Assembly: GCA_964016885.1 (NCBI GenBank)
Contig: OZ024740.1
Location: forward strand, 124,682,001-124,746,000
Origin: Eledone cirrhosa
Lineage: Eukaryota
Direction of reading: 5' to 3'
DNA: 64,000 bases
Position numbers and translations under genes: made by a program. Under the pieces are notes generated by a model that ran no database searches, was not told the origin of the DNA, and saw only the letters and a list, made by a program, of their open reading frames with translations. Below are positions 688 through 64,000 of the stretch, piece by piece; the stretch's first letter is position 1; every line of letters starts with the position of its first letter.

Positions 688-1327
688 TAAGAAACACAGT
701 AAACCGTGTGTCTAAAATTACAAGGGTTGAAAAACCACATTTGTTTGAAATATTTAACCAAGAAGCAGATAGAATGATAAAATAAAAAATATTATTATAC
801 AAACCGCCTCAATAACCATTATATCTCTCGGACAGATTATCCCTAATCTGTTTCGCCCTGAGTGTGTTTGTAACATATAATCCTAGGCATCATCAGCGAG
901 AGAATCAGATTAAATGCAACAAACACTATTTGCCAACGTTCACACAGAAAGATGAATTTGTCACCTCGTGCTCCGCTAGTCAAACGTGGTAAGCGTGTAT
1001 TGAATAGAAATAACAGTCCAACACACGCAACTTAATAAGCTCAACTTGTGAGGGAGCAGAAATATATATGAAAATTAGAGTTAAAATTCAATTGGAACCC
1101 TGCAACTATTAAGCTCCAAGTATAAAAATTCTGAGCCGATTAATAATATATAGTAAGAAACACAGTAAACCGTGTGTCTAAAATTACAAGGGTTGAAAAA
1201 CCACATTTGTTTGAAATATTTAACCAAGAAACAGACAGAATGATAAAATAAAAATATATTATTATACAAACCGCCTCAATAACCATTATATCTCTCAGAC
1301 AGATTATCCCTAATCTGTTTCGCCCTC
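688..1327 (-). mobile_element. Family B HHR-bearing partial tandem repeat (~1.4 monomers, period ~467 nt)
   Basis: 688-859 is repeated at 1154-1326 with few differences; abuts (TA)n on the left and a SINE tail on the right; no coding homology seen. Confidence 0.8.
824..903 (-). ncRNA. Type I hammerhead ribozyme (family B)
   Basis: Minus strand: TCTCTCG-CTGATGA-T-GCCT...GGGC-GAAA-CAGATTA-GGGA-TAATCT-GTC-CGAGAGA. 7-bp stem I, long stem III with GGGA tetraloop, GUC triplet. A 3' half copy lies at 1291-1327. Confidence 0.9.
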
Positions 1328-6421: not shown

Positions 6422-9400
6422 TTACAGACACATACTCAGAGAAGGCCCATTCATTCGGGCCATACTTGCTTCTCTCACTCATCTTTCAACAAAATGCTGG
6501 GAAGAGAGCACTTCCCTCTCTACCCTGATTTTCCTTTTCAAATGAAATTTGAAAAAGTTAATCAGGGCATCACCGAAGAAGTAAGTGCTCGTCTTCAGCC
6601 CTTTCAAACGTGTCCACCATACTATCGCTTTCGCCATGGCCACCAGACAGATAAAAACTGCCTGCCCTTCCCGGTTAAAGGAAGAGGGCGGGGAAATCCT
6701 CACGATGGACTCAGCTGATAGCTGGATCCGTCCTACACGTGACAGCAGGTGTTCGACATAAACCCACAAGTCAGAAATGCTCGGACACTGGATGAGTGCG
6801 TGCAGGACGTTTTCGTCGCCCTGTGCGCATCTCGGACATGCCCGGCTTACGGCACCTCCATGCCTGTAAAGTTTATCCCCAACTGGCAAAGCTCCCCTGT
6901 AGCACTGCCAGGCCAGGGATTTCTGGAAGTTGTCCATAGGCCCCGGCCCAAAAGTCCTTCCAAAGAGATTGGCTAGTTGATTTTCGTCGACGCCCAAAGT
7001 TTCTCCAAGTACGTCGTCGCTCTTCCCCTCCACTAATCCCCTATAGAACGCCGAGGTGGAGTTTCCACCGATCACATTGCCCGATTGGTCGAGGGCTGTG
7101 AGCGCCTGAAGACATTCCAGTTTCCAAGCGCTCCCTCTCGGTCTTCGCTTCACCTAGGACTGCAGCTCCGTCAAGGAGACGATCTGGGGAAAAACGTGTC
7201 TAGCAAACGGCGACCACACCTGATCACCGTCGAGGAAGAGGTGGAGATGTCGTAGCCTGAGCGCGTGTCTGCGCATCATCAGCCACGGCATGCCCAGCCC
7301 TCCATGTAGCAGGTGTTGACAGCAGATGGACCGCCTGACCATCGGAGCGCGTCCCTTCCACAAAAAGCGAAAGAGCAAACGCTCAAGCGCAGTCAGGCGG
7401 GGCTTAGGACAAGCTACGACGGTCAGGCGATAGTAGATGACGTACGCGATGTACGCGTTAGCTACCTCCGCTCGACCTTTCAGGGATAGCTTCCGCTCGG
7501 CCCATTTCTGGGTGAGAGAAGCCACCCTGCTCGTCACCTCGTCCCAGTTTTTGTCCGTCTGGAGGTCTGGACCGAACCAGACCCCTAGCAATTTAACCGG
7601 TCCGTCCGTCTAGCGCCCGACGACGCTGTTGGACGGCATGGACCTGCCTCTCCAGGTGCCGAGCTGCAGGCCCACTGACTTTTCCTGGTTGATCATTGCT
7701 CCTGTCACCGCTTCGTATTCTCTTAGTGTAGTGCCGATCGCCTCGATGTGTTTGGCGTTCGACACCACTACGGTGACATCGTCCGCATATGCTGACACGG
7801 ATCTTCCGCATCCTAGTTCGCGCGGGACTCCCTCTCAACGTCTCCAGTTTGTGCAGTAATGGCTCGAGAGTCAATACGTACAATAGGGACGACAGGGGAC
7901 ATCCTTGGCGGACCGAGCGCATGATGTTGAACGGTTCCGAAAGGTGACCGTTCACTCTCACTACAGAGCAGATGTCGCTGTGCATGGCAGCGATCCAGCC
8001 TCTGAAGACGGGCCCAAAGCCAGCCGCCCTCAGGACTGCCGCTAGGTAACGATGGTCGACCCTTTCGAAGGCTTTCGACTGATCTAAGTTGATCAAAGAC
8101 CCACCCGTGCCAGGTTCCCTAGCTACCCTCTCTACGATGTATCGCATGAGGTGGAGGTTGTCGTGGATGGATCTGTCGGGAATGGCGCATGTCTGTACCT
8201 CCCCCACTAGACCACCAACGACAAGCGCCAACCTCTTTGCTCGCACCTTTGCCAAAATCTTGAACTCTGTGTTTAGCAGAGTTATGGGCCTAAAATTATC
8301 TATGTTATCCCCCTTGTTCGGATCCTTTCTCAGCAGCGCCACCGCTCCTTGGCTCACATAGCTGGGAATTCTCCCGTTCTGTTGCCAGTTGCAGTAGACG
8401 TCCGCCAAGAGGCCTCCGAACAAGTCTGGCATTTGTACGTAAATTTTATAGGGCAGACCATCCAAACCAAGCGATTTACCCCTTGTGCAGCCAGTCATTG
8501 CCTCCCGTACTTCAGTGGTTGTTATCGGCTTTTCGCAACACTCCGCCTCAGTGGTCGAAAGCCGCGGCAGTCCGTCGAGGTAGACACTAAAGTCCATCCC
8601 TCGATCCGGTCCGCCACTGCCCCCGAACAGTTGAGCGAAGTGTCGCTGAAAAGCTTCACACATTTGCCCGGGATCGAGTAGCATGCGCCCGTCGTGGTCC
8701 ACCAAAGACCGGATCGTGGCTTTGTTGCCACCACGCGCCTCCGCCACTCGGGCCCATTGAACGGCTTTCGTCCCCTCGTGTCTGAGAGCACGCACCCTAG
8801 CTCTGACAACGCAGCCTTCGTGCTTTGCATTGAAGAATTGGTCAAGGGCCAATTTCGCCGTAAGTACGTCGATCGCGATGCCTTTGCTAAGCGCCTCGTC
8901 TAATTTTCTAACTAATTCTCCCTCTGCTCTATTTTTCTTTCTTGCTAAAGCCTTACTAAACCTAGTGGACTCTATTCTAATTGCTCTTTTCAGAGCAAAC
9001 CACCACTTGTTGTTGACGATGGCCCCCGTCAACGCCCGCTTCACTAGTTCGCTAATTCGGTCTCTGTAGGCCTTGCGCGCTGGTAAGGACACGTTTAGCT
9101 TCCAGTAGCCGGTCCTCGTCTATGAAGCCTATCTAAATCAAGCACACAGATCACGAATTTGTGGTCCGTGTAGCTGACTATCTTGAATTGTGGACAGCCT
9201 ATGCTAAACCTATCTATTTCCCTACAAAATACTCTATCTAGATATGATCTGGATGACCCCTATGCGATTTTTCCAAGTCCACATTGGCACATTCGGGAAA
9301 TCCAATCGGTATCTGTCAGACAGTTCAAAACGCCTGAGCAGGTTGGTGAGGCTTTTGCACCCTCCTCCCCTATCCGCTGATCCCACACAGTCCCAGTGTG

Positions 9401-15519: not shown

Positions 15520-18500
15520 ATGGATGTGTTAAGAGTAGGATGTTTGAATGCACGTGGCCTTGGCTCAACTTGGAAGCAAGCAAAGCTTCTAAATGACCTC
15601 AGGTCATGTGGTATAATTGTAATGGTTATCTGTGAGACTCGGATCAGCGTCGTGCGGCAGCTGGACCCTACCTTCGATGACTTTGAGGTGCATGCATCTC
15701 TCTGTCAACCTGGAGGTGGGGGTGGGGTTGTCGTACTGCTGCAAAAAAACACCTGGGTCTTGCCGTACAGGTTGTTCACTCGGACCCGGAGGGTCGTTTG
15801 TTGGTGCTAGACGTTGGCAGTAGTGAAGGTGCGGCCTTGAGACTGGTCGCCGTCTACTCCCCTTTCGGAGCTGAACGGCCCGACTTCTTCCAGCGTTTGG
15901 AGACTTTTCTGGGAACGTCGCGTTCCCTGCTTCTAGCGGGGGATTGGAATGACATCCTAGATGCACGTTGGGACTATGCAGGAGCATGTCCTGATAGAGG
16001 TTACTCGACCGTTTTAACTTGGTCGATAGATATCGACTAGATTTTCCAACTGTGCCTACCTGGACTTGGAGAAACCACAGTGGTCAATCTCGATCGTACT
16101 TAGATAGATTCTTAGTTAGAAGTAAGGATAGGGACATATTAAGCTGTCCAGAAATGCGCACGGTTGGCTATACGGATCACAAATTAGTGACCTGCGTAGT
16201 CAATCTCGAGAAAACACATAAACAGGGTCCCGGTTACTGGAAACTTAATTTGTCTTTACCGGCAAAAGAGACTTACAGAAATCGGATTAGCAGATTAGTT
16301 AAGGAGAGGTTGATGGGTGCAATCGTCAACAACCGATGGTGGGCATCTCTCAAAAGAGAGATTAGAACAGAATCAATAAGTTATAGCAAGATGTTAGCTG
16401 CCGATAGGAATAGAAACGAGAAAGAATTAACAGGTAAATTAGAAGAGGCAATCAAGAGCGAAGATGTGGCCAGAGTGCTGGCATCGAGGACGGCCTTGAA
16501 CCAGTTTTTCGATGCAAAGCACGAAGGCTGCATCATTCGAAGTAAAATACGTGCTCTAGGTAATGAGGGGGCCAAAGCCGTTGGCTGGGCCCGCGTGACA
16601 GAAGCTAAGAGTGGAAATCGATCCACCATTCGGTCGTTGCAAGACGAGGATGGACGGGTGATCCGGGAGCCTAAGCAGATGTGCGAGGCCTTTCAAAGGC
16701 ACTTTGCCCGATTATTCGGGGGAGGCGAGGGTCCGGGCGAGGACGTGGATTTCGGTCCATACCTCGACGGCCTGCCGCGTCTCTCGAGCGAAGAGGCAGA
16801 GTCCTGCGAGGGACCAATCTCGGCTGATGAGATCGGAGATGCGCTGAGCCAATGCAGCAAACGCAAATTTCCAGGTCTCGATGGTATACCTTACGAACTT
16901 TATTTAGCAATGCCGGTCTTCTTCTCCGAACTCCTCGAAGCGGTCTACTGCAATTGGCAGCAGAACGGGAGAATTCCTTGTTCTGTAGCCAAGGGCGTAG
17001 TCTCGCTGGTGAGGAAGGACGAGAACAAGGGGGATAGTATAAATAATTTTCGGCCCATAACCCTGCTAAACACAGAGTTAAAGATTTTGGCCAAGGTGTT
17101 AGCAAAGAGGTTAGCGCTTGTCATGGGTAGCCTGGTGGGAGATGCGCAGACATGTGCTATCCCATCCAGGTCCATTCACGATAACCTCCACCTCATGCGA
17201 TACATCATAGAGAGGGTTGGCAACAAACCCGGCTTCGGTGGGGCCCTGATCAACGTGGATCAGTCTAAGGCCTTCGATAGGGTCGACCATGGTTACCTGG
17301 ATGCGGTGCTAGCGGCGGCTGGGTTCGGTCCTGTTTTCAGAGGCTGGATCACTGCCTTACATAGCAAACACATCTGATCTAGGATCAAGGTGAACGGCTA
17401 CCTTTCGAAGCCATTCGAAATCACACGATCCATTCGACAGGGGTGCCCTCTCTCCTCCCTTCTGTACGTATTGACTCTCGAGCCTTTACTGAGGAAGTTA
17501 GAGTTGTTTCAGGGTATCCCCCTGGAACCAGGATTGAGCAAAGCGGTGTCGGCCTACGCCGATGACGTAACAGTAATGGTATCGACCGACTCGGAGATCG
17601 AGGCGATCGGTACCTTACTGGAGGATTACGAAAGGTTGTCAGGAGCGAAACTGAACCGGGAAAAATCCATCGGGCTGCAACTCGGAACGTGGAGAGGCAG
17701 ACCGATGCCTCCCGACGGTGTCGCCGGTAAAGTTGCTTGGGATCTGGTTTGGACCGGACCTCCAGGTGGAAAAGAACTGGGACGAGGTTACGATCAAGGT
17801 GTTTGCACTAACCCAGAAATGGGCCAAGTGTAAGCTGTCCCTAAAAGGCCGGGCGGAGGTGGCGAACCTTTACATAGCGTCCGTCACTTACTACCGCCTG
17901 ACTGTCGTGCCTTGCCCTAAGGAAACACTCACCACCATGGAACGCATGCTCTTCCAATTTCTTTGGAAGAAGCGCCCTCCTATGGTGAGAAGATCCATCT
18001 GCTGCCAACAACCTTCGAAAGGAGGGCTGGGGATGCCGTGGTTGATGATGCGTAGGCACGCATTAAGGCTACGGCACCTACAAGTATTCCTCACTGGTCA
18101 ACCAGTGTGGGCTCCGTTCGTGAAACGAGCCTTTCCGAGACTCGTCTCGCTCACCGAGCTGCAGTCCTGGGTCAAGCAAAGATCCGGAAAACTGGGAGAC
18201 TGGCACACTGAGTGTGCTCAGGCGCTCAGGGCTCTCTGGCAAGCGGGCCAGGCCATCGGTGGAGAATCCACCTCATCATTCTATAGAGGGTTGGTGGCTA
18301 GCAGGGGCGATGACACCCTTGGAGAGTCGCTGGACATGGAAGAGGACGAACTGGTCAGCCTGTTCGGTAGGACTTTCGGCCCGGGTCCAATGGACAACTT
18401 CCAGAAGTCACTAGCCTGGCAGTGCTACCGGGGGGCTCTACCCGTTCGAGAGAGGCTCTACAGACACGGGCGCCCAGGCAGGGATCCCTCGAAAAAGATT

Positions 18501-18917
18501 TGCCCTAGATGCGTGCGTCACGAAGAAACCGTTGCGCACGCATTGGTGCAATGTCCGGGCATGGCTGATCTGTGGGGCTACGCCGAACGACTGCTGTCGC
18601 GGGTGGCGCCGATTCGATTGACCGCCGAGTCCGTGATGACAATCAAACCGCCTCCCCTCTTCACAAAGGAAGCAAAGGCGGTTTTTCTGTGCGTAATAGC
18701 CATGTTGAAAGAGGTTGTTTGGTGGACACGATTGAAAGGTCTGAGGTCAGGCAACTTCCTCTCTGGCCATAGTCTGGTCTACTTCTTCCGATATCACTTC
18801 GGAAGAAGGATAAGAATGGAGAGAGAGGTGCTTGGCCACAGCCAGTTTTATGAAAGGTGGGTGATAGTGGCGAGAATGGCTCGTGTAAATGGGCCTTCTC
18901 TGTATACCATCCTGTAG
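15520..18917 (+). pseudogene. Tx1 ORF2 (APE + RT + zf-RVT) with about four frameshifts
   Basis: CLNARGL, ICETR, GDWN, YLDRF, TDHK, GYWKLN, RQGCPLS, AYADD, CPRC..HALVQC; frame breaks near 15750, 16015, 17372 and 17725. Confidence 0.93.
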
Positions 18918-21250: not shown

Positions 21251-21305
21251 ACTGCTATATATATTTCAGTGACAGCCATCTTTGGCTGTGACCTCTTCAG
21301 GCAGT
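21251..21305 (-). ncRNA. Minimal type I hammerhead ribozyme (inverted copy)
   Basis: Reverse complement of 21386-21440. Confidence 0.82.
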
Positions 21306-21385: not shown

Positions 21386-21440
21386 ACTGCCTGAAGAGGT
21401 CACAGCCAAAGATGGCTGTCACTGAAATATATATAGCAGT
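21386..21440 (+). ncRNA. Minimal type I hammerhead ribozyme
   Basis: ACTGC-CTGAAGA-GGTCACAGCCA-AAGA-TGGCTGTCACT-GAAA-T-ATAT-ATA-GCAGT; palindromic stem III loop, AUA triplet. Confidence 0.85.
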
Positions 21441-48500: not shown

Positions 48501-50701
48501 TAATGAATGACTCACCCTCATATATATAAGAGGCTTCTGTTATATATATTCTGGTTAACCCAAGGTGATAATAAAAGACACTTTTTTAAGGTGTCTTACG
48601 TTAAGTGTCAAACTCAAAATTTGTGGGTATGAAGCTAATATTTTAGTCACAGAGCCATACCTGCACCTATCATAACCATACCTTGAAGTACATTAGAATC
48701 ATGAGCTCTGTTCGTGTTGCTACTCATTCATTCTGTCTTCATGTTGCCTCCCTGTCACAAGCAAATTCCCACTTTTCAGATTTACGTTGGGGTTAGAAAG
48801 TTTAAAAGGCAGGTCTTATTGATATTTAGCCACAATTCTAATTAATAAACATGCAGTTAAAAAACTTCTAGCTGTGACCATGCCATTTAATTATTTTCTA
48901 GATATAATATCCAAAGTCTGTATTTTCTAACATTGCTTACATTTTCTAGGATGGTAAGGCATGTTTTGTGGGCAGGTTTGGCTGCTGTTTCTACAAAGTC
49001 AAGCAACTATATAGTGATGTATGTAGACTCAGTTCGAAATTTAAAAGAGAATGTATGTGTGTGTGTGATTGTGTAGATAGACAGAGAGGGGCGCGGGAGA
49101 AATGTAAAGAAAGAAATAAGGAAAAGAAAGAAATAAGGAAAAGAAAGAAAGAACAAATGCTAAACTTCCAGTGAGTTATGTCTCTAAGCTACCTTCCCTA
49201 TCTGACCTCAGATATTTTCCTTCTTATATATTACTATTGCTCTTGGGAAATGCATAACACCATTGCAACATTTCTGTCCCCTCTTTCTCAGCCAAATGAC
49301 TCATTTGATTAGAAATAGTCAAGTAATTAACTCATTTTATATACAATTCTATAAAATAAATAAAACATTATTTTATTAATTCATATTGCTTGTATACATG
49401 CAATATCAGAATTTATAAACCTGGCTAACTCATATAAAATAAAAATATAAATAAAATTGATGTAAAATGGATGTAAACAAAAATACAAAAAAATGAGCGA
49501 GATATAAAAAAAAAGTCTCTTTGAGAAAATTGGTATTTTATAATTCTGATAAAAGAATGATTTATTTTGAAGTTATCATTTGTAAATCATATTCCTATTT
49601 CTTTTTCTATAGCAAAGCTAAAAACAAAAATAGTTTCTATTCTAACGAAATTGAAATGGCTTCTTTTATGAAGAAAATCTTTTGCTTTAGGCAAATGTAA
49701 CATTTGTTTTGATATGGGTTTTAATACTAATAGTGTTTATAAATATATTTTGAAAACCAAATTAGTCGTTAGTTGGAGGAGAAATTTTATATAGTTTGTC
49801 AAATTTTGAATTTCATAGAGGAAAAGTAGAAGAATTAACATATAACGAAAATATATAAAACAACAACAGAAACAGTGAAATCAAAATAAAACAAAACAAA
49901 ATGCAATGGGAAGAAATAAATAAATAAAAAGGAGAACATTTTGAAAATAATCGATTTAAAATCTGGTTGGAAATTATAGAATCAACTGATGACTATATTA
50001 ACAATATTTCAAATCGTTTCTTTTTTCTTATTTTATTTCATGTTATTTGGTTAATATGTAAATAATTTTTGGATGTAGTCAAGTAAATTAAATCCCCATA
50101 GTTGTTGTTATTTGTAATTTTGTTTGTTAGTTCGTTAACAGTGTAATTTATATTTTAATTGTTACAGTTCTGCTTTTGCTACATTCTTACACTCCAGAGC
50201 TTAATTCTTTGAATTATTGAAGATATGTGCATGTGTGTGTTCATGTGTATATGCATGCATACATGCATGTATGGATACGTGAATATGTGTGTTCACAAAA
50301 TGCTACTCCATTATTTGAAGATATAGCACTTGTAACCAGCTCTTGTTATATGATAAGAAGGCTGTTTCTTTTAAAATATGTATCTCAAGATTTTACATTA
50401 TAATTTCGTTTAGTAATGTTTAAGTACAAAGCACCAGCTTAATAATGATAAAGTTAGTTATATTATTAAATCCCTCCAAATTCTTGATTATGTTCAAAAT
50501 GATTTAAAAATCAAAGGCAGTATCTTTCAATAGAAATATAGTAATGAATGCATCAGTCTTATCTGTTAGGTCAATTTAAGCACCTTAGGTAAATGTCTAC
50601 ACCAGTGATACTTACTGTAACAAAGTTCTTATGTAAGAGCTTGTACTTACACTTATAACTTGTATTTACACTTATAACATGTTCACTTGTACATATGAAG
50701 A

Positions 50702-51090
50702 AATAATTGTTTCTACTTTTGGCACAAGGCCAGCAATTACCCAGTGCATTATTGGTACTCTATTTTATCGACCCCGTAAGGATGAAAGGCAAAGTTAACC
50801 TCGGCGGGATTTGAACTCAGAATAGCAAGGGCCATAACTCTATGTGTCAAAGCATGGCATCTGACCCTCTACCAATACTGCCAATCCACAGCCCCTTGAA
50901 GAAATAATTGTTTCTACGTTTGGTACAACACCAGCAATTACCCAGTGCATTACAGGTACTTTATTTTATCGACCCCGTAAGGATGAAAGGTAAAGTTAAC
51001 CTAGGCAGGATTTGAACTCAGAATGGCAAGGGCCGTAACTCTATATGTCAAAGCATGGCGTCCGACCCTCTACCAATACTGCCAATCCAC
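50702..51090 (-). mobile_element. Tandem pair of tRNA-derived SINEs
   Basis: Two ~200-bp copies starting at 50702 and 50902, of the 26521 family. Confidence 0.85.
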
Positions 51091-51140
51091 CGAATGATGC
51101 ATAAACATGTGAACTTTACGAATAAGAGAAATGAAGGACT

Positions 51141-51302
51141 TCATCATCATCATCATCATCGTTTAACGTCCATCTTCCACGCTTGCATGGGTTTGGATGG
51201 GAGTGTTCCCACTTGAGGCAAGAGTGGTTGTCTTGCTCGCATAGGACTGTCTGGCGGGTTTTCTACGGCTGGATGCCCTTCCTAACACCAACCACGTTTA
51301 CA
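51141..51302 (-). mobile_element. RTE/SINE 3' tail fragment
   Basis: Inverted match to 34840-34992. Confidence 0.75.
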
Positions 51303-53829
51303 CAACTTATTAATAAGAATAAGAAAAAAACATTATTTTAAACTGGAAATTGGATGTGTGGTTATTTGTGTCACAAATGTGTGCTCTTGGGTTTTATCCC
51401 ACTTTTTGGGTAAGATATCAACCAATCTAAGCTAACACTTCCATGTTAATTTAAGTGCACTGAGACAATATACAATTAAACCTCCTACAGGGAATTATGA
51501 AGTGTAGCCCATACAATACTCATCTATTTTACTCAGAATTAATTTAAATCATCATCTTAATCATTACATCTGCTTTCTGTGCTGGTATGGGTTAGATAGT
51601 CATTACAGCCTAAGTCAGCTCTTATTTGGTATAACTCTATTTTTAGATGGATCAGAGAACCACATCTCACATGAGTATTCTATTTTTGGCATACCTTCTG
51701 CAGCAGGATGTAGTTTCTAAGACCAACTATATTATAGAATATACTGTGTGCAGTTTGTCGTTGCACCAACACTAGAAAGATTGACATATTCTCAACATGC
51801 CTAAAACATTCTCTCTATCCTACAATGTCTCTGTTGATCACGGGAACAATTCTCAGAGTGTACTGAGTGCATTCATCATAACACCAACACTAGGGATGTT
51901 GTTTTGAACACAGATTTAGAATTTAAAACATAAATTATATGACTCATTTTAAAGTAAGATTTCTCGTCTGCATTGAAACTATCTCGGAATTTGATATTGA
52001 TTTTGTTACTTACTGTTTTTGTTGTTGTTCATATAAAACTGATCTTATAATTAATTTGCTTATCTGTACATATTTATTACTTCAAAGATCTTGTTCTTTA
52101 CATTTTCCTCTTTCCTATGTGCTTCAAGTTATAATTTAACAATTAAATTATACTTATTACTGAAGCAACAGTGATATAGACTAAAGTGAGTAGGTTAGAG
52201 AGGGGGATGGAAATACAGCAGTAAAGAAATAGTGATAGAAGTAGAAGATTTAGACAAAATGAAAGACAGAGAAGAGAGAGAAAGATAGAGAGAGTATCTT
52301 AAATTTTTATTTAAAAATTTTCCTTTTATTTCTAAATAATTTTCCATCACTTTCTCTCTGTTTCCTCCTATTTTAATATAATTTTTATAGGCCACAGATT
52401 ATCATGTTGGAGTTAATTTACAAAAAATATATACAGTAAAAAGAAACCTCTTGTAACTTCAATAACTAATAATCCAACTACAAAATGAGTATGTAGTTAA
52501 TAGGTGGCTTCACCACCACATGATTTCAGGTTCAATTTATCTGCATGCATCTTAGGAATAGTATCTTATTAACTAATACTTTGTGAGTGGAATATGGTTG
52601 ATGGAGTCTGTGCAGAAGGTCCACATATGCATATGAATATGTGTGTTATAAACTGGTGTTATTTGTGTTTGTGTCCTTTTATATCCAATAACCAGCTTGG
52701 CTAATAGAGATCGAGGAAATAAGTAGAAGACAGAAATAAATATCGAAGTGCAAATGATTGATGGTACTACCACAGCATTGCCATATTCCAATGACTAAGA
52801 CCAGTAGATGAGTAGAATATATGTATAGTAGAATGTTGAAATGGTAAATCTAACATCACTGATGCTCAAAAAAAGAAGCTTGGAAATGCTATTATGAAAG
52901 GTGGATGAATATGGAAAACAAGCGGAAGGTGGAGGAGAGTCTAGCCCCAGTTGACCCAACAGAAGGACCAGCTATCAAAATTGACAGTTATAGGGTCAAA
53001 GAAGCATTCAAGGAAAAGAAAAATCATAAAGCCCCCAGTACATAAGGGATAGTTACAGTCAATAAGAGATAGTCACAGGGATGCTGAAATATTTTGAAGA
53101 AATAGAAATTAAACTAATTAATACATAATCAATCAAGTAATACACGATAGTAACTTCTCTTGTAGTTGTCTCACTTAGAATATTTTATCTGTGGTGCTCC
53201 TTCCTAGTACAAAGCCAAACTGTGTCTCATCTAATTTTACTTTTTCTTTACTTAGGTGTGCCAACATTCCTTTCATCACTTTGATAACTTGTTTCATCAG
53301 TTATGTGCCTTTGTAGTTGCTCCTTTTTAGAACATCATCTTTTCCTTTTTTGTATTTAATGATTATACTGCTATGCATTCATTGGGCATAAAACTGTTGT
53401 TTATTACCTGATTGAATAAGTAAGTGACTTGTTCAATTCCTTCACCAGATGATTTCAACATCTTTGTGACTATTACCGATGGTCAAGTGGCTTTACAATT
53501 ATTCATCTCCAAAAATGCTTTGTTGACATCAATGTTGTATAAAGATCTTTTTATATATATACCAGGTGTACTTTTCAAATCTATTTTATAAAATCATTTT
53601 CCTTATATATATACATGTATGTATGTGTTATGTTGTGTCCTTGAGAAGGAAACTTTATTTCATGCTGCTCCAATTCCCTCAACTGTAGAAATCAGTTGCA
53701 ATACCACTGGTTCCCAAGCTATATCAGCTTAGCCTTTCACTTGAACAACATCAGTGGCTAGTTCCACAAAACACCTTGCCTGGTGTTCTACCCAGAGATG
53801 AAATTTCTAAGTTCAAGACATTATATAAT

Positions 53830-54032
53830 CATCATCATCATCATCATCATCATTTTACGTCCGCTTTTCACTGCTTGCAAGGGTTAGACGGGTCCTATTC
53901 AGCGCAGCATCTCTCCACTTCGTCATCTCGTCCATGAGTTTCAGCGGTCTGAGGTCTGCTCTCACCACCTCCGCCCATATTTTTCGTGGTCTACCTCTAC
54001 TGCGTCTTCCTTCTACTGGTAGTTCTTGGCAC
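53830..54032 (-). mobile_element. RTE LINE extreme 3' fragment
   Basis: GRRSRGRPRKIW-like remnant and (GAT)n tail. Confidence 0.7.
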
Positions 54033-54208
54033 GTTATATATATCTATCTCTCTCTATATATATAACGAAGGAAGTGTGGTAAGGAACCAGGTGGACAATA
54101 ACGCACCAGAGTACTCAATACTTTCTGTCCAGAAATAGCCGTCGAAACGGCTTGAGCTCTGCCGTCGGGGTCCTGAACATTTTCCTATTACCCACTCTAC
54201 TACCCAGA

Positions 54209-54243
<35 letters not shown>

Positions 54244-54403
54244 TTCCTGCTCATGGACACAACACATTACCCTGCCAGGGACCAATCTTACAGCCTTACA
54301 ATCGTGAATCCAAATCTCTAACTACACACACATACACACTCACACATATATATATGTATATATATGTATCTAATTAGAAGGTGAACAAGACAAAATATAA
54401 CTA

Positions 54404-54471
54404 CTCCATTACCAAATGTTTCTGGATCCCAGACAATATTAATATACGTCTGGATCGGTCATCAGACAGAG
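54404..54471 (-). ncRNA. Type I hammerhead motif (Penelope-type 3' end)
   Basis: CTCTGT-CTGATGA-CC-GATCCAGAC...GTCTGGGATC-CA-GAAA-C-ATTTG-GTA-ATGGAG inside a TA-flanked insert (~54370-54660). Confidence 0.72.
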
Positions 54472-54678
54472 ATGTTATAAGTAAAAAATATGAAATGAGA
54501 TTTAAAATCTGTTAAAAATTGGAAGTGAGGCTGGAAAAATAAAGGGAAATATAGATAAGAAAAAATATATATCAAAGAAGGGTAAGAGAAATAACATATA
54601 AAAATATATAGCAATATATAAAAAGACATACACACATTCAGATATAAGTAAAATATATGTATATGTATATATACGCAC

Positions 54679-54716
<38 letters not shown>

Positions 54717-54976
54717 GGAAAAATGAAACGAAATTTCGTTTCACACTCTTAGTACGGCTGTTACTTAAATATAAGTATGTACACGTACATACATATATGT
54801 ATACAGAAGAACAGTAGTATGTATATATATATACATACATGCACACATATATATATGTACGTATGGATTCACCGAACATTTATTATAATGCTCGGTGTGT
54901 TTGTAAACAAACATCCCGTATTAAGCCGTAGTGTCTAGCAACCATCGTTGCTCGTTTGTTCAACACTGACAAAGGA

Positions 54977-55019
54977 ACGCTGTACTAGTTTCAAGCTTAT
55001 TAGCTATCGTCAGCAACGT
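54977..55019 (-). ncRNA. Type I hammerhead ribozyme (family A)
   Basis: ACGTTG-CTGACGA-TAGCTAATAAGCTT-GAAA-CTA-GTA-CAGCGT. Confidence 0.9.
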
Positions 55020-55398
55020 ATACCTTCCTGCCAGATTGTTGAACGTATATATTTACCTTATGCATATTAACAGCTGAGTAGCCCAATTTGCATATCGTGT
55101 GGATTAATCGGCCGGGTGCACCGAAAACGATAAACGGAAAAAATGAAACGAAATTTCATTTCCCACACTTAGTACGGCTGTTACTTAAATATAAGTATGT
55201 ACACGTACATACATATATGTATACAGACGTACAGTAGTATGTATATATATATACATACATGCACACATATATATATATGTACGTATGGATTCACCGAACA
55301 TTTATTATAATGCTCCGTGTGTTTGTAAACAAGCATCACGTATTAAGCCGTAGTGTCTAGCAACGATCGTTGCTCGTTTGTTCAACACACACAAAGGA

Positions 55399-55441
55399 AC
55401 GCTGTACTAGTTTCAAGCTTATTAGCTATCGTCAGCAACGT
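55399..55441 (-). ncRNA. Type I hammerhead ribozyme (family A)
   Basis: Same motif, 422 nt from the previous copy. Confidence 0.9.
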
Positions 55442-55657
55442 ATACCTTCCTGCCATATATATATGTGTGCATGTATGTATATGTATATATACATAATACT
55501 GTACGTTTGTTTACAAACACACAGAGCATTATAATAAATGTTCGGTGTATCTATACGTACATATATATATGTGTGCATGTATGTATGTATATATATATAT
55601 ATATATATACATACTACTGTACGTCTGTATACATATATGTATGTACGGGTACATACT

Positions 55658-55700
<43 letters not shown>

Positions 55701-55833
55701 ACACACAAACATACACATATATACACATATATACCCAGATATACACACTTATACACACACACATACATAAATACATACACAGACATATACACACACACAC
55801 ACACATAAAACATATATATATAAATATATATAT

Positions 55834-56136
55834 ATAATATATAAGATCAAAAGATGGTTAAAAGAGTTCCATGTATTTTATTATGCGCATTTCAAAAACA
55901 AATAGAGCAGTTTTAAATCAACATATATTGATTTAAAACTGCACTATTCACAAGTGTTTTTTAACATTCATATCATGTCTTCCTATTTTATCTGATGAAA
56001 ACACAAATATTATTGCATGATGATATTTGTTTTTGAAATGCGCATAATAAAATACATGGAATTCTTTTAACCATCTTTTGATCTTATATATTATGTATAC
56101 TCCAGTCCTGCAAACTGTAGAAAACTTTAAAAAAAT

Positions 56137-56140
<4 letters not shown>
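55834..56140 (+). mobile_element. Foldback (71-bp arms) plus ~46-nt tail in (TA)n; inverted pLTR-like
   Basis: 55834-55904 vs 56024-56094; extra internal hairpin ~55902-55947; contains an HHR. Confidence 0.85.
55984..56054 (+). ncRNA. Minimal type I hammerhead ribozyme
   Basis: TATTTTAT-CTGATGA-[long AU-rich stem II]-GAAA-T-GCGC-ATA-ATAAAATA; palindromic GCGC loop. Confidence 0.82.
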
Positions 56141-56182
<42 letters not shown>

Positions 56183-56188
<6 letters not shown>

Positions 56189-58142
56189 AGAAGCAAAAAA
56201 TTGCTTATTGTGATCCAGTTCGTGGTTAAGAAAGCCAGTTTCATGGATGGTTTCAACGCACGGTTAGGGGTAACTCCACAAGTAACTCCAGAAGTATCTA
56301 AGTTTATACAATTTGACATTAACGATTATTACTCATCTATATCCCCCAACACCTTGGATAAAGCCTTAGCATTCGCCAAATCCAATTCTGACATAACAGA
56401 CGACGAGATAAAAATCATATTAGCTGCTAGGAAAACAATAATTAAATTTGAAAACGCCTATTGGGAACGTAAGGATAGATTAAATAACTTTGACATCACG
56501 GTGGGGGCTAACGACTCGGCTCAAGTCACAGACTTAGTAGGTATTTACATAGCCCATAGTTTACAAAGCGAGTTTAGCGACCTTCACGGTGGAATCTACA
56601 GAGACGACGCCCTTCTCCTAGTTAAGAACCTAAATAACCATTGCATAGAAAGACTCCGTAAGAATATTAGAAAGACTCTCGGAAAACTAGACCTTAGCAT
56701 AACGTACAAGTATAGCACTAAAACATTTAACTTTCTAGATGTGACGCTTAACCTAAATACGGGACTTATAAGACCTTTTCACAAGATTAATGAAAACTTA
56801 GCATACATCAACTGTAACTCAAACCACCCACTATCTATAATTAAATCCATTCCACGCAACATATCCCTTAGGATCTCCCGCCTCTCATCTAACCGGCAAA
56901 TCTTCGAAGAACATGCAGAATACTACAATACCGCATTAGACAAGGCAGGCCACTTAGATAGAGTAGAATATATAGATGAAAGCCTCTGTGAAGCACACAC
57001 GAACACGCATAACACAAACTCCAGAAACACACGCATACACACATTTACGCATAGAACTGCAAAGTATACGGCTAATAGAAGTACAACATCGAAATCAAAC
57101 AAGTCACGCAGTAGAAAATATATTTGGTATAACCCTATATTTAACACCTCTATTAGTACTAACCTACCCTCTACTTTCTTTAGAATAATAAATGGGCACT
57201 TTCCAGATTCACATAGATACAGCAAAATCCTTAACACTAAATCTATTAGACTATCCTACTCCACGGCACCAAATATAGAAGCACACATTAAGATGCTTAA
57301 CGCTAAAAAGATACATAACAACACCAAAACACAAATTTACAACAATAACAATACAATTACCACCGAACACAACAGAATATCTAATACACAACCACCCGCT
57401 AATAGGCAAACAAAACGTAACACTCTTGTTCAGGCATCGCAGCCCACAAATAATGCCAAAGTTGCCCATAACAAGAAATGCAACTGCCACCTACCTGAAA
57501 CCTGTCCATTACAAAATGAATGTATGCAGTCTAACCTGGTTTACCAATGCACAGTGGAATCAGACAACCAGAAATGGTATTACATCGGAGCGACTGGGAA
57601 TACTTTTAAAGCTCGTTGGTATACACACCGTTACGCAATGAAACATTCCCAGCACCGTTATGTAACTACCCTTGCAAACAAGACCTGGCAACTGAGGGAA
57701 AGTAACCATCAATACACCCTGAAGTGGAAAAAATTATCAAACGCGCCCCCATATCGGAGTGGTATGAGAAGCTGTCGATTATGCGACCTTGAGCTGTTCC
57801 ACATCTTAAGTTCGAAGAATAGGTTACTCAACAATAAAATTGAGAGATCAATTTATTGTAACCATTGACTCAAAGAGAAATTTTCGCACTACAAATCGAA
57901 CACTTAACCTCTTACTACCAACTGACAAACTGCATATACTTAGACTTTATACCCTCTTATATCTAGACCCTTTAATTACCCACAAAACCAATTCATATAT
58001 CCCCCCTTCTCCCCCATTCCTCTTCTATTTCTTCGTTTTCTTCCTTCCTTCCCCCTTCTTGGCTATCTTTTCTTTTCTTCCTTCTCACCCCCTTCTTTGC
58101 TTTTATTTTTGTCATTATTATCTTTATTTTATATTTTTTATT

Positions 58143-58175
<33 letters not shown>

Positions 58176-58182
58176 ATGTATG

Positions 58183-58235
<53 letters not shown>

Positions 58236-58263
58236 TTGTGTGTGTATATATATGTATGTGTAT

Positions 58264-58307
<44 letters not shown>

Positions 58308-58796
58308 CTCTTTATATCTCCCCCCCCCCACCTCTCTCTCTCTCCCTCTCTATCCATCCCTCCCACTATTATCTATTTAATTCTCTTTAACTCACTACAC
58401 TCCACGACATGATGTCTGCTATCAAAACTGACCAAAGAATCCTTCCACCTCTACCCCTACCTCCACCTCTACCCCTACCTCCACCTCAGTTTGTCATTCT
58501 ACTTCCTACCTCTTCCCCCTTCCTCTCTCTCTCTATACTATGCCGTCTGTCCCCCCACTTCCCGATTCCTCTCTCTCTATACTAGTAAATACAATTCCAA
58601 ATAAATGTTTTTCTCTATATATTAAGAACTATTTTAAGAGTAACTCACTATTTTGAAAATTTGGACTGTGAACAACAATTATAATTGAGTGGCTGCTATT
58701 TGCAGTATAGCAATATAAGGTTGCACTTACCAATGAAACGGTCGTAAATACCTGGATTAAACCCTTCTCTTAATGCTTACCTGTGTTTTCTCTTTT
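56183..58796 (+). mobile_element. Penelope-like retroelement insertion in (TA)n, Hydra-clade-like
   Basis: (TA)n at both ends; pyrimidine-rich 3' region with internal microsatellites; clade assignment from motif recall only; 3' boundary uncertain. Confidence 0.65.
56201..57868 (+). CDS. Penelope-like element RT + C-terminal GIY-YIG endonuclease, 5'-truncated (homology starts ~56290)
   Basis: FIQFDINDYYSSI, GANDS, GIYRDD, FNFLDVTL, SNHP, CNCx5C, LVYQC..YYIG..FKARWYTH, CRLC..CNH; no internal stops. The first ~30 codons are probably not element-derived. Confidence 0.9.
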   Translation: MLIVIQFVVKKASFMDGFNARLGVTPQVTPEVSKFIQFDINDYYSSISPNTLDKALAFAKSNSDITDDEIKIILAARKTIIKFENAYWERKDRLNNFDITVGANDSAQVTDLVGIYIAHSLQSEFSDLHGGIYRDDALLLVKNLNNHCIERLRKNIRKTLGKLDLSITYKYSTKTFNFLDVTLNLNTGLIRPFHKINENLAYINCNSNHPLSIIKSIPRNISLRISRLSSNRQIFEEHAEYYNTALDKAGHLDRVEYIDESLCEAHTNTHNTNSRNTRIHTFTHRTAKYTANRSTTSKSNKSRSRKYIWYNPIFNTSISTNLPSTFFRIINGHFPDSHRYSKILNTKSIRLSYSTAPNIEAHIKMLNAKKIHNNTKTQIYNNNNTITTEHNRISNTQPPANRQTKRNTLVQASQPTNNAKVAHNKKCNCHLPETCPLQNECMQSNLVYQCTVESDNQKWYYIGATGNTFKARWYTHRYAMKHSQHRYVTTLANKTWQLRESNHQYTLKWKKLSNAPPYRSGMRSCRLCDLELFHILSSKNRLLNNKIERSIYCNH

Positions 58797-58847
58797 ATAT
58801 ATATATATATATATATCAACTAGAAATTGGATATATATATATATATA

Positions 58848-59655
58848 GCTGTATAAAAAAGTGCAGGGCGATCAAAATTGATGGTAGTTACGGAGTAGGT
58901 AGACCCAGAAAAACCTGGGACGATCTGATAAATTCCAACCTTACACATTTGCACCTCTCTAAGACAATGTCACTGGACCGAGATCTTTGGCGCTACGCAG
59001 TAATACAGAAGACCCGCCTTGCCTATGTACAAAGCGAAACCTACAGTCAGTAGGCACCTCTTAACCAAATATACACCCCAATCCACTACTCCTACCCTAT
59101 CTTCTCACCAACACCACCCCCTCTCTATAAAGTTGGTACCACAACATCCAGTCTAAATAAATGAGATAAATGAGATCGAGATCGAGATCGTGTAGGTGTC
59201 ACGACAAAAAAACACACAGTCCACGCTGTAATGTGGTCGTGTAGGTAACACGGTAAAAAGTTCACAGTTCCACACTGTAAATGTGGTTGGTGTTAGGAAG
59301 GGCATCCAGCCGTAGAAAATCTGCCACGCTGTAATTTGGCCGTGTAGGCAACACGGTAAAAAGTTCCCAGTTCCACACTGTAAATGTGGTTGGTGTTAGG
59401 AAGGGCATCCAGCCGTAGAAAATCTGCCACGCTGTAATGTGGTCGTGTAGGCAACACGGTAAAAAGTTCCCAGTTCCACACTGTAAATGTGGTTGGTGTT
59501 AGAAAGGGCATCCAGCCGTAGAAAACCTGCCAGATAGTCCTATATGAGCGAGACACGGTCACCCGACCAACCTTGCCTCAAGTGGGACAACTCCCGTCTA
59601 ACCAATGCTAGCGTGGAAAGTGGACGTTAAACGAGGATGATGATGATGATGATGA
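58848..59655 (+). mobile_element. RTE LINE 3' fragment with triplicated 103-bp UTR unit
   Basis: Matches 34442-34992; units start at 59221, 59324 and 59427. Confidence 0.88.
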
Positions 59656-59660
59656 TATAT

Positions 59661-60200
59661 ATCATCATCATCTTCACCGTTTTACGTCCATTCTTCCACG
59701 CTAGCATTGGTTAGACGGGTTGTCCTGTTGTGGGCAGTGTCCGGTCGGCTGACCATGCCTTGCTCATACGGGAACTGATTCTGGCTTGATTTCTACAGCT
59801 GGATGCCCTTCATAACACCAACCTCATTTACAGTGAGTGCTGGGTGCTTTTTTTCCGTGGCGCCTACACGTCCACTTTACAGTGTGGGCTGGGTGCTTTT
59901 TTATCGTGGCACCTCCACGACCACTTTGCAGTGGGAGGGAATATTGTCTATATGTTTCAGCTTCGGCTTGTACCCGTGGGGGTTTTGGTCTTGTGTATTA
60001 CTGCATGAGGCCAGAGGTGACGGTTGTGTGTCATCGCTTTTGAGAAGTTTAATTGGGTAAGATCGGCTTTTATCACCTCTTCCCAGGTCTTCTTGGGTCT
60101 CCCCACTCCGCGGTTTCCATCGACTTCTAATGCTCTGCACCTTTTTATGTAGCTGTCATCCTTCATACGCATCAAGGTGTCCATACCAATGCAACTGCCA
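59661..60200 (-). mobile_element. RTE LINE 3' fragment
   Basis: MRMKDDSYIKRCRALEVDGNRGVGRPKKTW; (GAT)n tail facing the previous element. Confidence 0.85.
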
Positions 60201-60206
60201 TATTTA

Positions 60207-61534
<1,328 letters not shown>

Positions 61535-61923
61535 TCCTGCATTGAACCACCTAGGTACTATGACATAACCTGTGTATTTGCTGGCATGGGCGTGCATCTG
61601 TGCGCTTATGTTAGTTGATATATTAAATTATCTATATTTATCTCCAAATCACTGATTTGTCGAGCAAACTTGTCAAAACCACTTCTAAAAAAATTTTTTT
61701 TTTTGGGGTGTTAGTAGGCGTCAGTCATCTTACCATCCCATTCCTTCTAACTAGCCTCTGTGTCACGTGATTGATTCTTTAGAATCGGCCATTTGACTTG
61801 AAGCAGTGAGAATTTCGGTACATAGAATTCAGTCCTCGCAAGCTGTTCGATCTACCGAATTATTATTATTTTTATATGAGCCGCCAGTGTCCGCGCATTG
61901 CCTGGAGACTTAACTGAGAATAG

Positions 61924-62005
61924 ACTTCCTGATGACGCAATGAATTCTCGACAGTTGGATTACATAACTGTCTTTATCCCATTGCAGAAACTAATTAGTT
62001 GGAGT
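61924..62005 (+). ncRNA. Type I hammerhead ribozyme (family C)
   Basis: ACTTC-CTGATGA-C-GCAATG..GACAGTT..AACTGTC..CATTGC-A-GAAA-CTAATTA-GTT-GGAGT; palindromic ACTAATTAGT stem III, GUU triplet. Confidence 0.87.
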
Positions 62006-62022
62006 GAAAATTTAAGTAAGAA

Positions 62023-62063
<41 letters not shown>

Positions 62064-62509
62064 ATTTTTTTAAAAAAATATTTTCTTATTTTACGTCCTT
62101 TATATTATTGTTCTGCATTCTCCTGCATTGAACCACCTAGGTACTATGACATAACCTGTGTATTTGCTGGCATGGGCGTGCATCTGTGCGCTTATGTTAG
62201 TTGATATATTAAATTATCTATATTTATCTCCAAATCACTGATTTGTCGAGCAAACTTGTCAAAACCACTTCTAAAAAAATTTTTTTTTTTGGGGTGTTAG
62301 TAGGCGTCAGTCATCTTACCATCCCATTCCTTCTAACTAGCCTCTGTGTCACGTGATTGATTCTTTAGAATCGGCCATTTGACTTGAAGCAGTGAGAATT
62401 TCGGTACATAGAATTCAGTCCTCGCAAGCTGTTCGATCTACCGAATTATTATTATTTTTATATGAGCCGCCAGTGTCCGCGCATTGCCTGGAGACTTAAC
62501 TGAGAATAG

Positions 62510-62591
62510 ACTTCCTGATGACGCAATGAATTCTCGACAGTTGGATTACATAACTGTCTTTATCCCATTGCAGAAACTAATTAGTTGGAGT
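62510..62591 (+). ncRNA. Type I hammerhead ribozyme (family C, second unit)
   Basis: Same motif 586 nt downstream. Confidence 0.87.
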
Positions 62592-62609
62592 GAAAATTTA
62601 AGTAAGAAA

Positions 62610-62651
<42 letters not shown>

Positions 62652-62690
62652 TTTTAAAAAAATATTTTCTTATTTTACGTCCTTTATATT

Positions 62691-62731
<41 letters not shown>

Positions 62732-62998
62732 ACATATATTTATAAATATTTATATATATATACATTTTATATATATAAATACATTTATATATAAGTATGT
62801 ACACGTACATACATATATGTTTACCGACGTACAGTAGTATGTATATATATATATACATACATGCACACATATATATATGCACGTATGGATTCACCGAACA
62901 TTTATTATAATGCTCGGTGTGTTTGTAAACAAACATCCCGTATTAAGCCGTAGTGTCTAGCGACCACCGTTGCTCGTTTGTTCAACACTGACAAAGGA

Positions 62999-63041
62999 AC
63001 GCTGTACTAGTTTCAAGCTTGTTAGCTATCGTCAGCAACGT
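62999..63041 (-). ncRNA. Type I hammerhead ribozyme (family A)
   Basis: ACGTTG-CTGACGA-TAGCTAACAAGCTT-GAAA-CTA-GTA-CAGCGT; the next copy (63425-63458) is cut by the inversion. Confidence 0.9.
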
Positions 63042-63624
63042 ATACCTTCCTGCCAGATTGTTGAACGTATATACTTACCTTATGCATATTAACGGCTGAG
63101 TAGCCCAATTTGCATATCGAGTGGGTTAATCGGCCGGGTGCACCGAAAACGATAAACGGAAAAAATGAAACGATATTTCATTTCCCACTCTTAGTACGGC
63201 TGTTACTTAAATATAAGTATGTACACGTACATACATATATGTATACCGACGTACAGTAGTATGTATATATATATATATATACATACATGCACACATATAT
63301 ATATGCACGTATGGATTCACCGAACATTTATTATAATGCTCGGTGTGTTTGTAAACAAACATCCCGTATTAAGCCGTAGTGTCTAGCAACCACCGTTGCT
63401 CGTTTGTTCAACACTGACAAAGGAACGCTGTACTAGTTTCAAGCTTGTTAGCTATCGTACTAACAGCCGTACTAAGAGTGGGAAATGAAATATCGTTTCA
63501 TTTTTTCCGTTTATCGTTTTCGGTGCACCCGGCCGATTAACCCACTCGATATGCAAATTGGGCTACTCAGCCGTTAATATGCATAAGGTAAGTATATACG
63601 TTCAACAATCTGGCAGGAAGGTAT

Positions 63625-63667
63625 ACGTTGCTGACGATAGCTAACAAGCTTGAAACTAGTACAGCGT
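63625..63667 (+). ncRNA. Type I hammerhead ribozyme (family A)
   Basis: ACGTTG-CTGACGA-TAGCTAACAAGCTT-GAAA-CTA-GTA-CAGCGT; predicted cleavage after 63661. Confidence 0.92.
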
Positions 63668-64000
63668 TCCTTTGTCAGTGTTGAACAAACGAGCAACGGT
63701 GGTTGCTAGACACTACGGCTTAATACGGGATGTTTGTTTACAAACACACCGAGCATTATAATAAATGTTCTGTGAATCCATACGTGCATATATATATGTG
63801 TGCATGTATGTATATATATATATACATACTACTGTACGTCGGTATACATATATGTATGTACGTGTACATACTTATATTTAAGTAACAGCCGTACTAAGAG
63901 TGGGAAATGAAATATCGTTTCATTTTTTCCGTTTACATTTATATATATATATATATATTGCAGGGTAGGCTGCTCGCTCGGTGAAATGTAACGTACTAAT

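Follow-up and report, generated by a model that had tools for sequence, protein, structure and literature searches.

The element at 56184-58799 and its family

We analysed a stretch of 64,000 nt of Eledone cirrhosa DNA (GCA_964016885.1, contig OZ024740.1, positions 124,682,001-124,746,000 of the forward strand), hereafter the window, and within it a truncated Penelope-like element (PLE) lying between two (TA)n tracts. On its left the element is bordered by a (TA)21 microsatellite (56141-56183; 21.5 copies at 100% by TRF, and present in the locus map of L001) and on its right by a (TA) run (58800-58816, starting at about 58798, from sequence reading and the locus map). An open reading frame (ORF) extends from stop to stop over 56189-57868 (+), 559 codons, of which the last 526, from 56291 onwards, are coded by the element (tblastn of residues 248-785 of the family protein P0003 matches 56291-57904 at 95.9%). 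The first 33 codons are a read-through of a short inverted copy of the 3' end of the element itself (the stub) and lie outside the family protein, since nearly all matches in the same genome begin at query residue 33-34 of the window frame; they are supplied by the stub through accident.

The stub comprises 100 bases (56184-56283, -) and corresponds to the distal 3' end of the family, from unit position 4165 to 4065 (blastn 95-96% to L010 4065-4183, opposite strand; unit positions refer throughout to the natural copy L010, whose intact protein is P0003). A junction of 6-7 nt (56284-56290), containing the 6 bases 'aactcc', a word that by sequence reading is also found in the stub, joins it to the 5'-truncated ORF (56291-57865, +), which carries residues 248-772 of the 785-residue family protein, as judged from the tblastn match of 95.9% to P0003, the motifs and the alignment. 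The ORF is closed by a private premature stop, TGA (57866-57868, +), placed directly after the CNH motif and 13 codons ahead of the family stop; at this position 18 other copies read AGA and one reads AGC. In the window copy, translation thus stops short of the final 12 codons of the family ORF and its TAA stop (57869-57907, +, from sequence comparison). There follow the proximal stretch of the 3' untranslated region, which includes a CT-rich tract (57908-58138, +; 95.4% to L010 3121-3336), the internal (TA)/(TG) microsatellite of the element (58139-58307, +; unit 3337-3577), identified by TRF and by colinear homology on either side and varying in length among copies, and the distal 3' module (58308-58799, +; 91.7% to L010 3580-4037), which stops at the proximal-type 3' end of the family, 'ttttctctttta'. 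The sense arm (56291-58799) spans unit 1504 to about 4030-4037 and is thus cut short on the 5' side as well as on the 3' side, where the final ~130 bases of the unit are absent.

The coding part retains the RT (reverse transcriptase) motifs from 3/A on, the thumb, a CxCx5C linker, the GIY-YIG endonuclease motifs and CxxC..CxH. We were able to place on the forward strand FIQFD (56303-56332), YRDD (56597-56608), SNHP (56819-56830), the linker CNCHLPETC (57479-57505), LVY (57536-57544), YIG (57581-57589), ARWYTH (57611-57628), CRLC (CxxC, 57773-57784) and CNH (CxH, 57857-57865). The copy is unable to act, because residues 1-247 are missing and the ORF ends at a premature stop. The first-pass annotation had described, between 56183 and 58796 and in a (TA)n setting, about 525 stop-free codons with YRDD, linker cysteines, GIY-YIG motifs and a terminal CxxC..CxH, in a 5'-truncated copy that could not itself be a helper. 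This description agrees with ours in its limits, in the number of codons (526 element-coded ones by our count), in the motifs, each of which lies within 56291-57865, and in the (TA)n setting, and to the 5' truncation we add the 3' truncation and the private TGA.

The frame 56189-57868 is no chance ORF: a protein search of the own 3.0-Gb genome returned at least 79 family matches at 83-98% amino acid identity, and in 21 of these the frame has no internal stop. The unit of the family measures about 3.4 kb (~3.43 kb, L010 737-4165) and consists of a 2358-nt ORF (785 residues) and a 1045-nt 3' region, the latter formed by the CT-rich tract, the internal microsatellite and a 590-nt distal module that terminates in '...gcttctctaac' at unit 4165 and is bordered there by (TA)n; where copies stand in tandem, 37 nt connect unit 4165 with the ORF start. 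The family is young and abundant: ORF identity to the window copy ranges from 96.9 to 98.5%, with a median of 97.8%, in 19 copies taken as a top-hit sample. It may still be active, since one of 20 copies (L010) has an intact 785-residue ORF.

The encoded protein is predicted to be a TERT-like RT, followed by a linker and then by a domain with GIY-YIG motifs. The full-length AlphaFold model, built on a 20-sequence alignment, is confident (pLDDT 83.6, pTM 0.80) and its best Foldseek matches are telomerase TERT structures (6zdq_A, E 4.4e-9; 3du5_A, 7.8e-9). The top three VIA-align matches are also all TERT (Z 17.3, root-mean-square deviation (rmsd) 7.6, 309 aligned; Z 16.4, rmsd 3.5, 306 aligned; Z 15.6, rmsd 6.2, 356 aligned), followed in the structure searches by retron, DRT, R2 and LINE-1 RTs; TERT as the best structural match of the model is the expectation for a Penelope-like RT. 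The motif series of the predicted endonuclease domain is present (LVY..YIG..R..H..E..N), and residues 661-754 of the full model show the order beta-beta-alpha-alpha-beta-alpha, with a pLDDT of mostly 88-94 over the block. A profile search gave 40,253 cluster representatives at E ≤ 0.001, and in the Atlas neighbour clusters PF01541 is found on 26-50% of the members. The nearest database proteins are 19 homologues of nearly the same length with 29-37% identity, among them a hypothetical protein of the cephalopod Argonauta hians. The ORF also contains two low-complexity T/N/H-rich inserts (P0003 481-519 and 601-641; window about 56990-57110 and 57350-57470), modelled with pLDDT <50 and absent from most homologues.

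Regarding the clade, the portion of PMC8557442 (Craig et al. 2021) that deals with the Hydra clade gives as protein traits RWK, DKT in place of DKG, a divergent RT4(B) and a CxCx5C linker, and describes an endonuclease devoid of CCHH, with CxxC and CxH flanking a conserved E and N; the elements are inserted in (TA)n, generally short (<3 kb) and provided with a canonical hammerhead, which is there stated to be universal in the clade. One of its members, Hydra-1_Obim from octopus, has 2507 bp and sits in (TA)n, according to the supplement of the same work. We scored these features on an alignment of 20 homologues against the feature list of PMC8557442. RW(K/R) is found in the alignment (RVRWK in P0003); D119 and K120 are invariant, the next residue being T in 18 of the 20 sequences and S in the other two (KADKTSN in P0003). 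Both motifs fall in the part lost from the window copy. The CxCx5C pattern runs across the alignment and CxxC..E..N..CxH is kept, with no conserved cysteine pair from GIY to YIG, most homologues being cysteine-free between VY and YxG. The same motif blocks were recognised by eye in Hydra-1_Obim and the other printed Hydra proteins. Assignment to a Hydra-type PLE is therefore well supported by these motifs.

Insertion footprints and a proposed mechanism

To describe how copies of the family are inserted we used 20 loci (L001-L020). The 5' start is reached in nine copies and the remaining 11 are truncated at assorted points. In 13 loci the sequence covered includes a canonical 3' end, at unit 4165 in seven and at unit ~4037 in six, and 11 of these 13 ends directly abut (TA)≥6, while one is 17 nt off and one has no tract. 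Of 17 resolved left edges, 12 abut (TA)≥6. Set against the 3.9% of window positions that lie within 10 nt of (TA)≥6, these counts correspond to binomial P values of 2e-14 for the 3' ends and 7e-14 for the left edges. Five further copies (L004, L012, L013, L017 and L020) end inside the internal microsatellite, with the distal module absent from the next ~1 kb, L005 stops just short of this microsatellite, and the 3' end of L016 was not resolved.

In 12 of the 20 loci the sense arm is preceded on its left by an inverted arm, and where the outer end of the latter is in range (10 loci) it lies at unit 4037 in seven and at unit 4165 in three. Six loci contain an upstream partial tandem copy, or pseudo-LTR (pseudo-long terminal repeat), with a join of about 37 nt. 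These arrangements are the insertion hallmarks of PLEs given in PMC8557442, namely 5' truncation, tandem pseudo-LTRs, adjacent inverted 5'-truncated copies and a junction 'tail' of 30-40 bp.

We also noticed that several 5' truncation points are nearly identical between two loci (unit 1504/1503 in L001/L002, 1242/1244 in L003/L019, 856/856 in L011/L016 and 911/917 in L014/L015), the inverted arms differing within each pair. This suggests either preferred template-switch sites or the re-copying of already truncated copies.

The flanking (TA)n of two-armed copies could have been acquired from an RNA tail. (TA)n is nonetheless best read as a pre-existing target and not merely as such a tail, because it is also found directly at sense-oriented 5' junctions, as in the single-armed copies L015 and L018, and in L063, L064, L068 and L069, which belong to a sister family, F2 (described below). 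The 3' ends of F2 abut (TA)n in 14 of 14 cases.

We consider it highly probable that 56184-58799 is one dead insertion of a young Hydra-clade PLE between two (TA)n tracts, formed by a truncated sense arm and a 100-base mirror stub. This insertion probably arose through target-primed reverse transcription, with both strands of the TA repeat nicked and each serving as a starting point. In the mechanism that we propose, the GIY-YIG endonuclease would nick (TA)n on both strands and so free TA 3' ends to pair with UA runs of the element RNA, those used being the distal end (unit 4165), the 'uuuuauacuuauac' run near unit 4030 and the internal microsatellite; such pairing would explain the three classes of 3' end (4165, ~4030-4037 and internal microsatellite). 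Since (TA)n is self-complementary, priming could take place on either strand, and two arms whose 3' ends face outward would result. The two complementary DNAs (cDNAs) would then extend toward each other and be joined. In the window copy, the 100-nt left arm would have been primed at unit 4165 and the 2.5-kb right arm near unit 4030. The identification of a Penelope-like RT/GIY-YIG element with motifs that recall the Hydra clade, already made in the first-pass annotation, is borne out by TERT as the best structural match, by the GIY-YIG motifs, by the PLE-type arms and pseudo-LTRs, and by the presence of RW(K/R), DKT, CxCx5C, CxxC..CxH and (TA)n together with the absence of CCHH.

Besides the possible origin of flanking (TA)n from an RNA tail, several points weigh against this reading. 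Neither the window protein nor the intact copy has a Pfam match to RVT or GIY-YIG, and among the 20 homologues PF01541 is touched by one, with E 0.012. A PDB sequence profile of the whole protein retrieves a retron RT alone, at E 0.021, and a profile of the endonuclease part gives 0 matches. No GIY-YIG chain appears in the whole-model structure searches, which are filled by RT matches, and the endonuclease-only model, from a 2-sequence alignment, has a pLDDT of 38.8 and is unusable, so that the GIY-YIG fold is without confirmation by fold search. The 20 loci were taken from the top of the score list and do not sample the family at random, and the mechanism is read from the insertion footprints only, from which we infer both the twin priming and the pairing with UA runs. 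Finally, unlike the published Hydra elements, the family has no hammerhead core and its unit, at ~3.4 kb, is longer than 3 kb; once the microsatellite and the distal module are subtracted, about 2.6 kb remain.

Hammerhead motifs, neighbouring repeats and the helper question

The word CUGANGA is absent from the sense strand of all non-coding parts of L010, the hammerhead core was found in 0 of 26 segments of the 3' region (20 loci), and a search of the family 3' module with the Rfam hammerhead models gave none at E ≤ 10. The family is thus an exception to the statement that hammerheads are universal in the Hydra clade, because no core was found in it. The loss of a hammerhead would be no bar to membership in the PLEs, since Naiads, as they are described in PMC8557442, are likewise without one.

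The sister family F2 was first met beside a 422-bp repeat array at L045 (217-2375; G000:C2:324446016-324448174) and is also present at L059-L072. It is Hydra-type and shares 54.6% amino acid identity with the window family. Of 1096 candidates, the 40 loci scored have 3' ends that are 98-100% identical, and F2 looks younger than the window family. About 170 nt ahead of its 3' end, F2 has a hammerhead-like motif, composed of CUGAUGA, a long hairpin, GAAA, the palindrome CAAUUG and a 4-bp helix I, which we regard as a putative ribozyme. The exact core pattern is found in 14 of 14 further loci, which are themselves 98-99% identical, so that there is no covariation. A two-sequence alignment of the 3' regions, which is not reliable, suggests that the core was lost in the window family.

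Hammerhead-like motifs are found in repeats outside the PLE, where our calls are based on a descriptor of our own and on shuffled sequences: the strict type-I descriptor gives eight matches in the window and 0 in each of 20 shuffles. Five of the eight fall in the 422-bp family, two in a 586-bp duplicate and one at 824-903. Next to the PLE stand two tandem 422-bp units (54714-55540, -), with type-I motifs at 54977-55019 and 55399-55441 and a 3' end abutting (TA)n at 54713; further motifs of this 422-bp family are located at 124-168, 62999-63041 and 63625-63667. At least 40 near-identical copies were seen (of 1465 candidates), in arrays of 1-6 units, with inverted arms in seven of 23 loci and with two 3' ends, A422 and A370 (the latter in eight loci), each at UA runs abutting (TA)n. 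In a top-hit sample of 43 units, the median identity to the window unit is 97.8%.

Between this array and the PLE lies a foldback repeat (55843-56090, +) with a loose hammerhead-like motif at 55992-56038. It belongs to a dispersed family whose copies are 93-98% identical (40 loci scored of 668 candidates). In the window copy the left arm mirrors the last 55 nt of the unit, and in other copies (L049-L057) its first 100 nt; since left arms elsewhere mirror the first 100 nt, these arms are built otherwise than those of the PLE. Rfam reports no hammerhead at gathering score in the whole window, and relaxed thresholds (E ≤ 1 or E ≤ 10) likewise gave none in 50000-64000, in the motif of the 422-bp family or in the foldback. 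It had been reported from the letters of the window that a hammerhead foldback and a 'family A' array adjoin the PLE. No coordinates were given for family A, which we took to be the 422-bp tandem array. The array does contain two strict motifs, but the foldback has the looser motif alone and Rfam finds none in it.

Other repeats of the window include a 586-bp duplicate within 61535-62700, two units identical over the 300 nt compared, which forms a separate ribozyme repeat family with motifs at 61924-62005 and 62510-62591; helix II is long in both, and each motif leads into a long T run. The most canonical-looking of the candidate hammerhead motifs in the window is a type-I motif at 824-903 (-), which has a 7-bp helix III and a 7-bp helix I, adjoins (TA)n and stays below the Rfam thresholds. 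A mirror pair at 21264-21300 (-) and 21391-21427 (+) has identical CUGAAGA...GAAA cores, and its helix III would be (UA)n itself. Broken non-LTR retrotransposon ORFs, unrelated to the PLE, are found at 6479-9119 (-) and 15998-18917 (+), with Pfam RVT_1 at E 6.5e-18 and 1.2e-10, respectively, and zf-RVT. Two short inverted ORFs (58748-59053, +, and 59957-60301, -), with the tail '...DG..GVGRP.KTW...' and no Pfam match, surround a 103-bp tandem repeat of three units (59221-59532); ORF pair and repeat are probably the end of another repeat family.

The mobilisation of animal retrozymes by PLEs is an already published hypothesis, set out in PMC7229834 and in a preprint (10.64898/2026.07.22.740005), and the first-pass annotation had suggested that this family or a relative mobilises the repeat families A, B and C and the foldbacks in trans. 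We consider it unlikely that the Hydra-type family, through its intact copies, is the source of the enzyme that moves the 422-bp family, the foldbacks and others. The proposal can draw on the published hypothesis, on the existence of at least one intact PLE ORF and on similar ages, the median identity being 97.8% in PLE ORFs and 422-bp units alike. Moreover, the 422-bp family has the same footprint in 23 loci, with tandem units, inverted arms, alternative 3' ends at UA runs and (TA)n. The absence of a (TA)n bias, different end structures or activity at different times would have severed the link; compared with the 422-bp family, the bias is present, the ends are alike and the ages overlap, which leaves the proposal without refutation.

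Nothing ties the repeats to this family in particular, however. The missing hammerhead core in its 26 3'-region segments speaks against the proposal. The 3' regions of the family and of F2 have no similarity to the hammerhead repeats of the window (blastn word 7, E ≤ 0.01), and the 10 inverted arms with a resolved outer end (20 loci) include no chimera of PLE and repeat. Published links of non-autonomous elements to PLEs rest, in the cases described in 10.64898/2026.07.22.740005 and in PMC8557442 (Chlamys), on shared pseudo-LTR or 3' sequence. The PLE and the 422-bp family do share a small hairpin 8-11 nt ahead of the (UA)n end, but it is missing from F2; as a recognition signal common to both families it was dropped as weak, since F2 has none. 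The common footprint fits any (TA)n-targeting PLE, the sister family in the same genome included, and F2 or other PLE clades are equally good or better candidates. A helper role is possible on general grounds, with nothing specific to this family.

A related idea is that a hammerhead-less Hydra-type enzyme sets 3' ends by the pairing of nicked (TA)n with any UA run, and so copies unrelated RNAs, which we hold to be improbable. If it were true, this family or F2 would be the long-sought engine of (TA)n-embedded retrozymes without a common 3' sequence, and the two or three alternative 3' ends and the mirror arms, in the coding element and in the retrozymes, would be accounted for.

The least probable alternative, which we doubt strongly, concerns the element itself and takes the distal 3' module (unit 3578-4165; window 58308-58799 and the stub) for a separate non-coding passenger in the terminal (TA)n of the PLE, with, at the same very low probability, a true PLE of about 2.6 kb, the usual Hydra size, ending at the internal microsatellite: the module-less copies (five of 20 ending within the microsatellite, and L005 just before it) and a module-less unit of about 2.58 kb, against 2507 bp in Hydra-1_Obim, would fit, but the inverted arms of L003 and L005 cross the microsatellite from unit 4037 to 3208 and 3429, respectively, so that one template held the ORF-side part and the module, upstream tandem pieces end at 4165 and reach the ORF through the same ~37 nt in six loci, in the manner of pseudo-LTRs, and no solo module beginning at 3578 was seen among the 20 loci.

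Taken by itself, the locus of the dead Hydra-type insertion is a matter of ordinary repeat annotation. The family is useful, being young and abundant, with one intact ORF among 20 copies. Its clean footprints (fixed ends at UA runs, mirror arms and a 37-nt junction) bear on the unsolved insertion mechanism of PLEs and on the question of what mobilises animal retrozymes. Of modest interest are the lost hammerhead and the clean evidence of 3' ends set at UA runs. The family contradicts the published claim of a hammerhead in every Hydra-clade element and, together with F2, which keeps one, offers a natural comparison for the purpose of the ribozyme.

Comparison with known systems

Twin priming is known from LINE-1 elements, in which two cDNAs primed from both strands of one staggered break lead to an inverted 5' part. 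The process proposed here resembles it in that two cDNAs are primed from both strands. It differs in that both outer ends are 3' ends of the element, in that the target is self-complementary (TA)n, and in the enzyme, which is a GIY-YIG PLE here and of APE type in the LINE.

The neighbouring 422-bp repeats with their type-I motif would belong to the animal non-LTR retrozymes, a class described in PMC7229834 (Cervera and de la Pena 2020) and in the Li et al. 2026 preprint. With the PLE family these repeats have in common the (TA)n ends and the arms, both tandem and inverted. Unlike the retrozymes, the PLE studied here encodes an enzyme and is without a ribozyme. The retrozymes of Xenopus match PLE pseudo-LTRs in sequence, in the account given in 10.64898/2026.07.22.740005, whereas no such match is found in our window.

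With the canonical endonuclease-bearing (EN+) PLEs, Penelope/Poseidon, Neptune and Nematis, the family shares a TERT-like RT with a C-terminal GIY-YIG-motif domain, as well as frequent 5' truncation, pseudo-LTRs, inverted 5'-truncated neighbours and a 30-40-bp junction tail. It is distinguished from them by the lack of CCHH, by DKT in place of DKG and by a pseudo-LTR without hammerhead.

The closest likeness is to the Hydra clade. Besides the missing hammerhead and the longer unit, the family differs from it in the internal microsatellite and the 590-bp distal module, and in an ORF that has two low-complexity inserts and whose nearest database proteins are just 29-37% identical. Common to both are a single ORF with RW(K/R), DKT and not DKG, a divergent RT4(B) and the CxCx5C linker, GIY-YIG motifs without the CCHH pair, CxxC and CxH around the E and N, insertion in (TA)n, and hosts that are aquatic invertebrates, a cephalopod among them.

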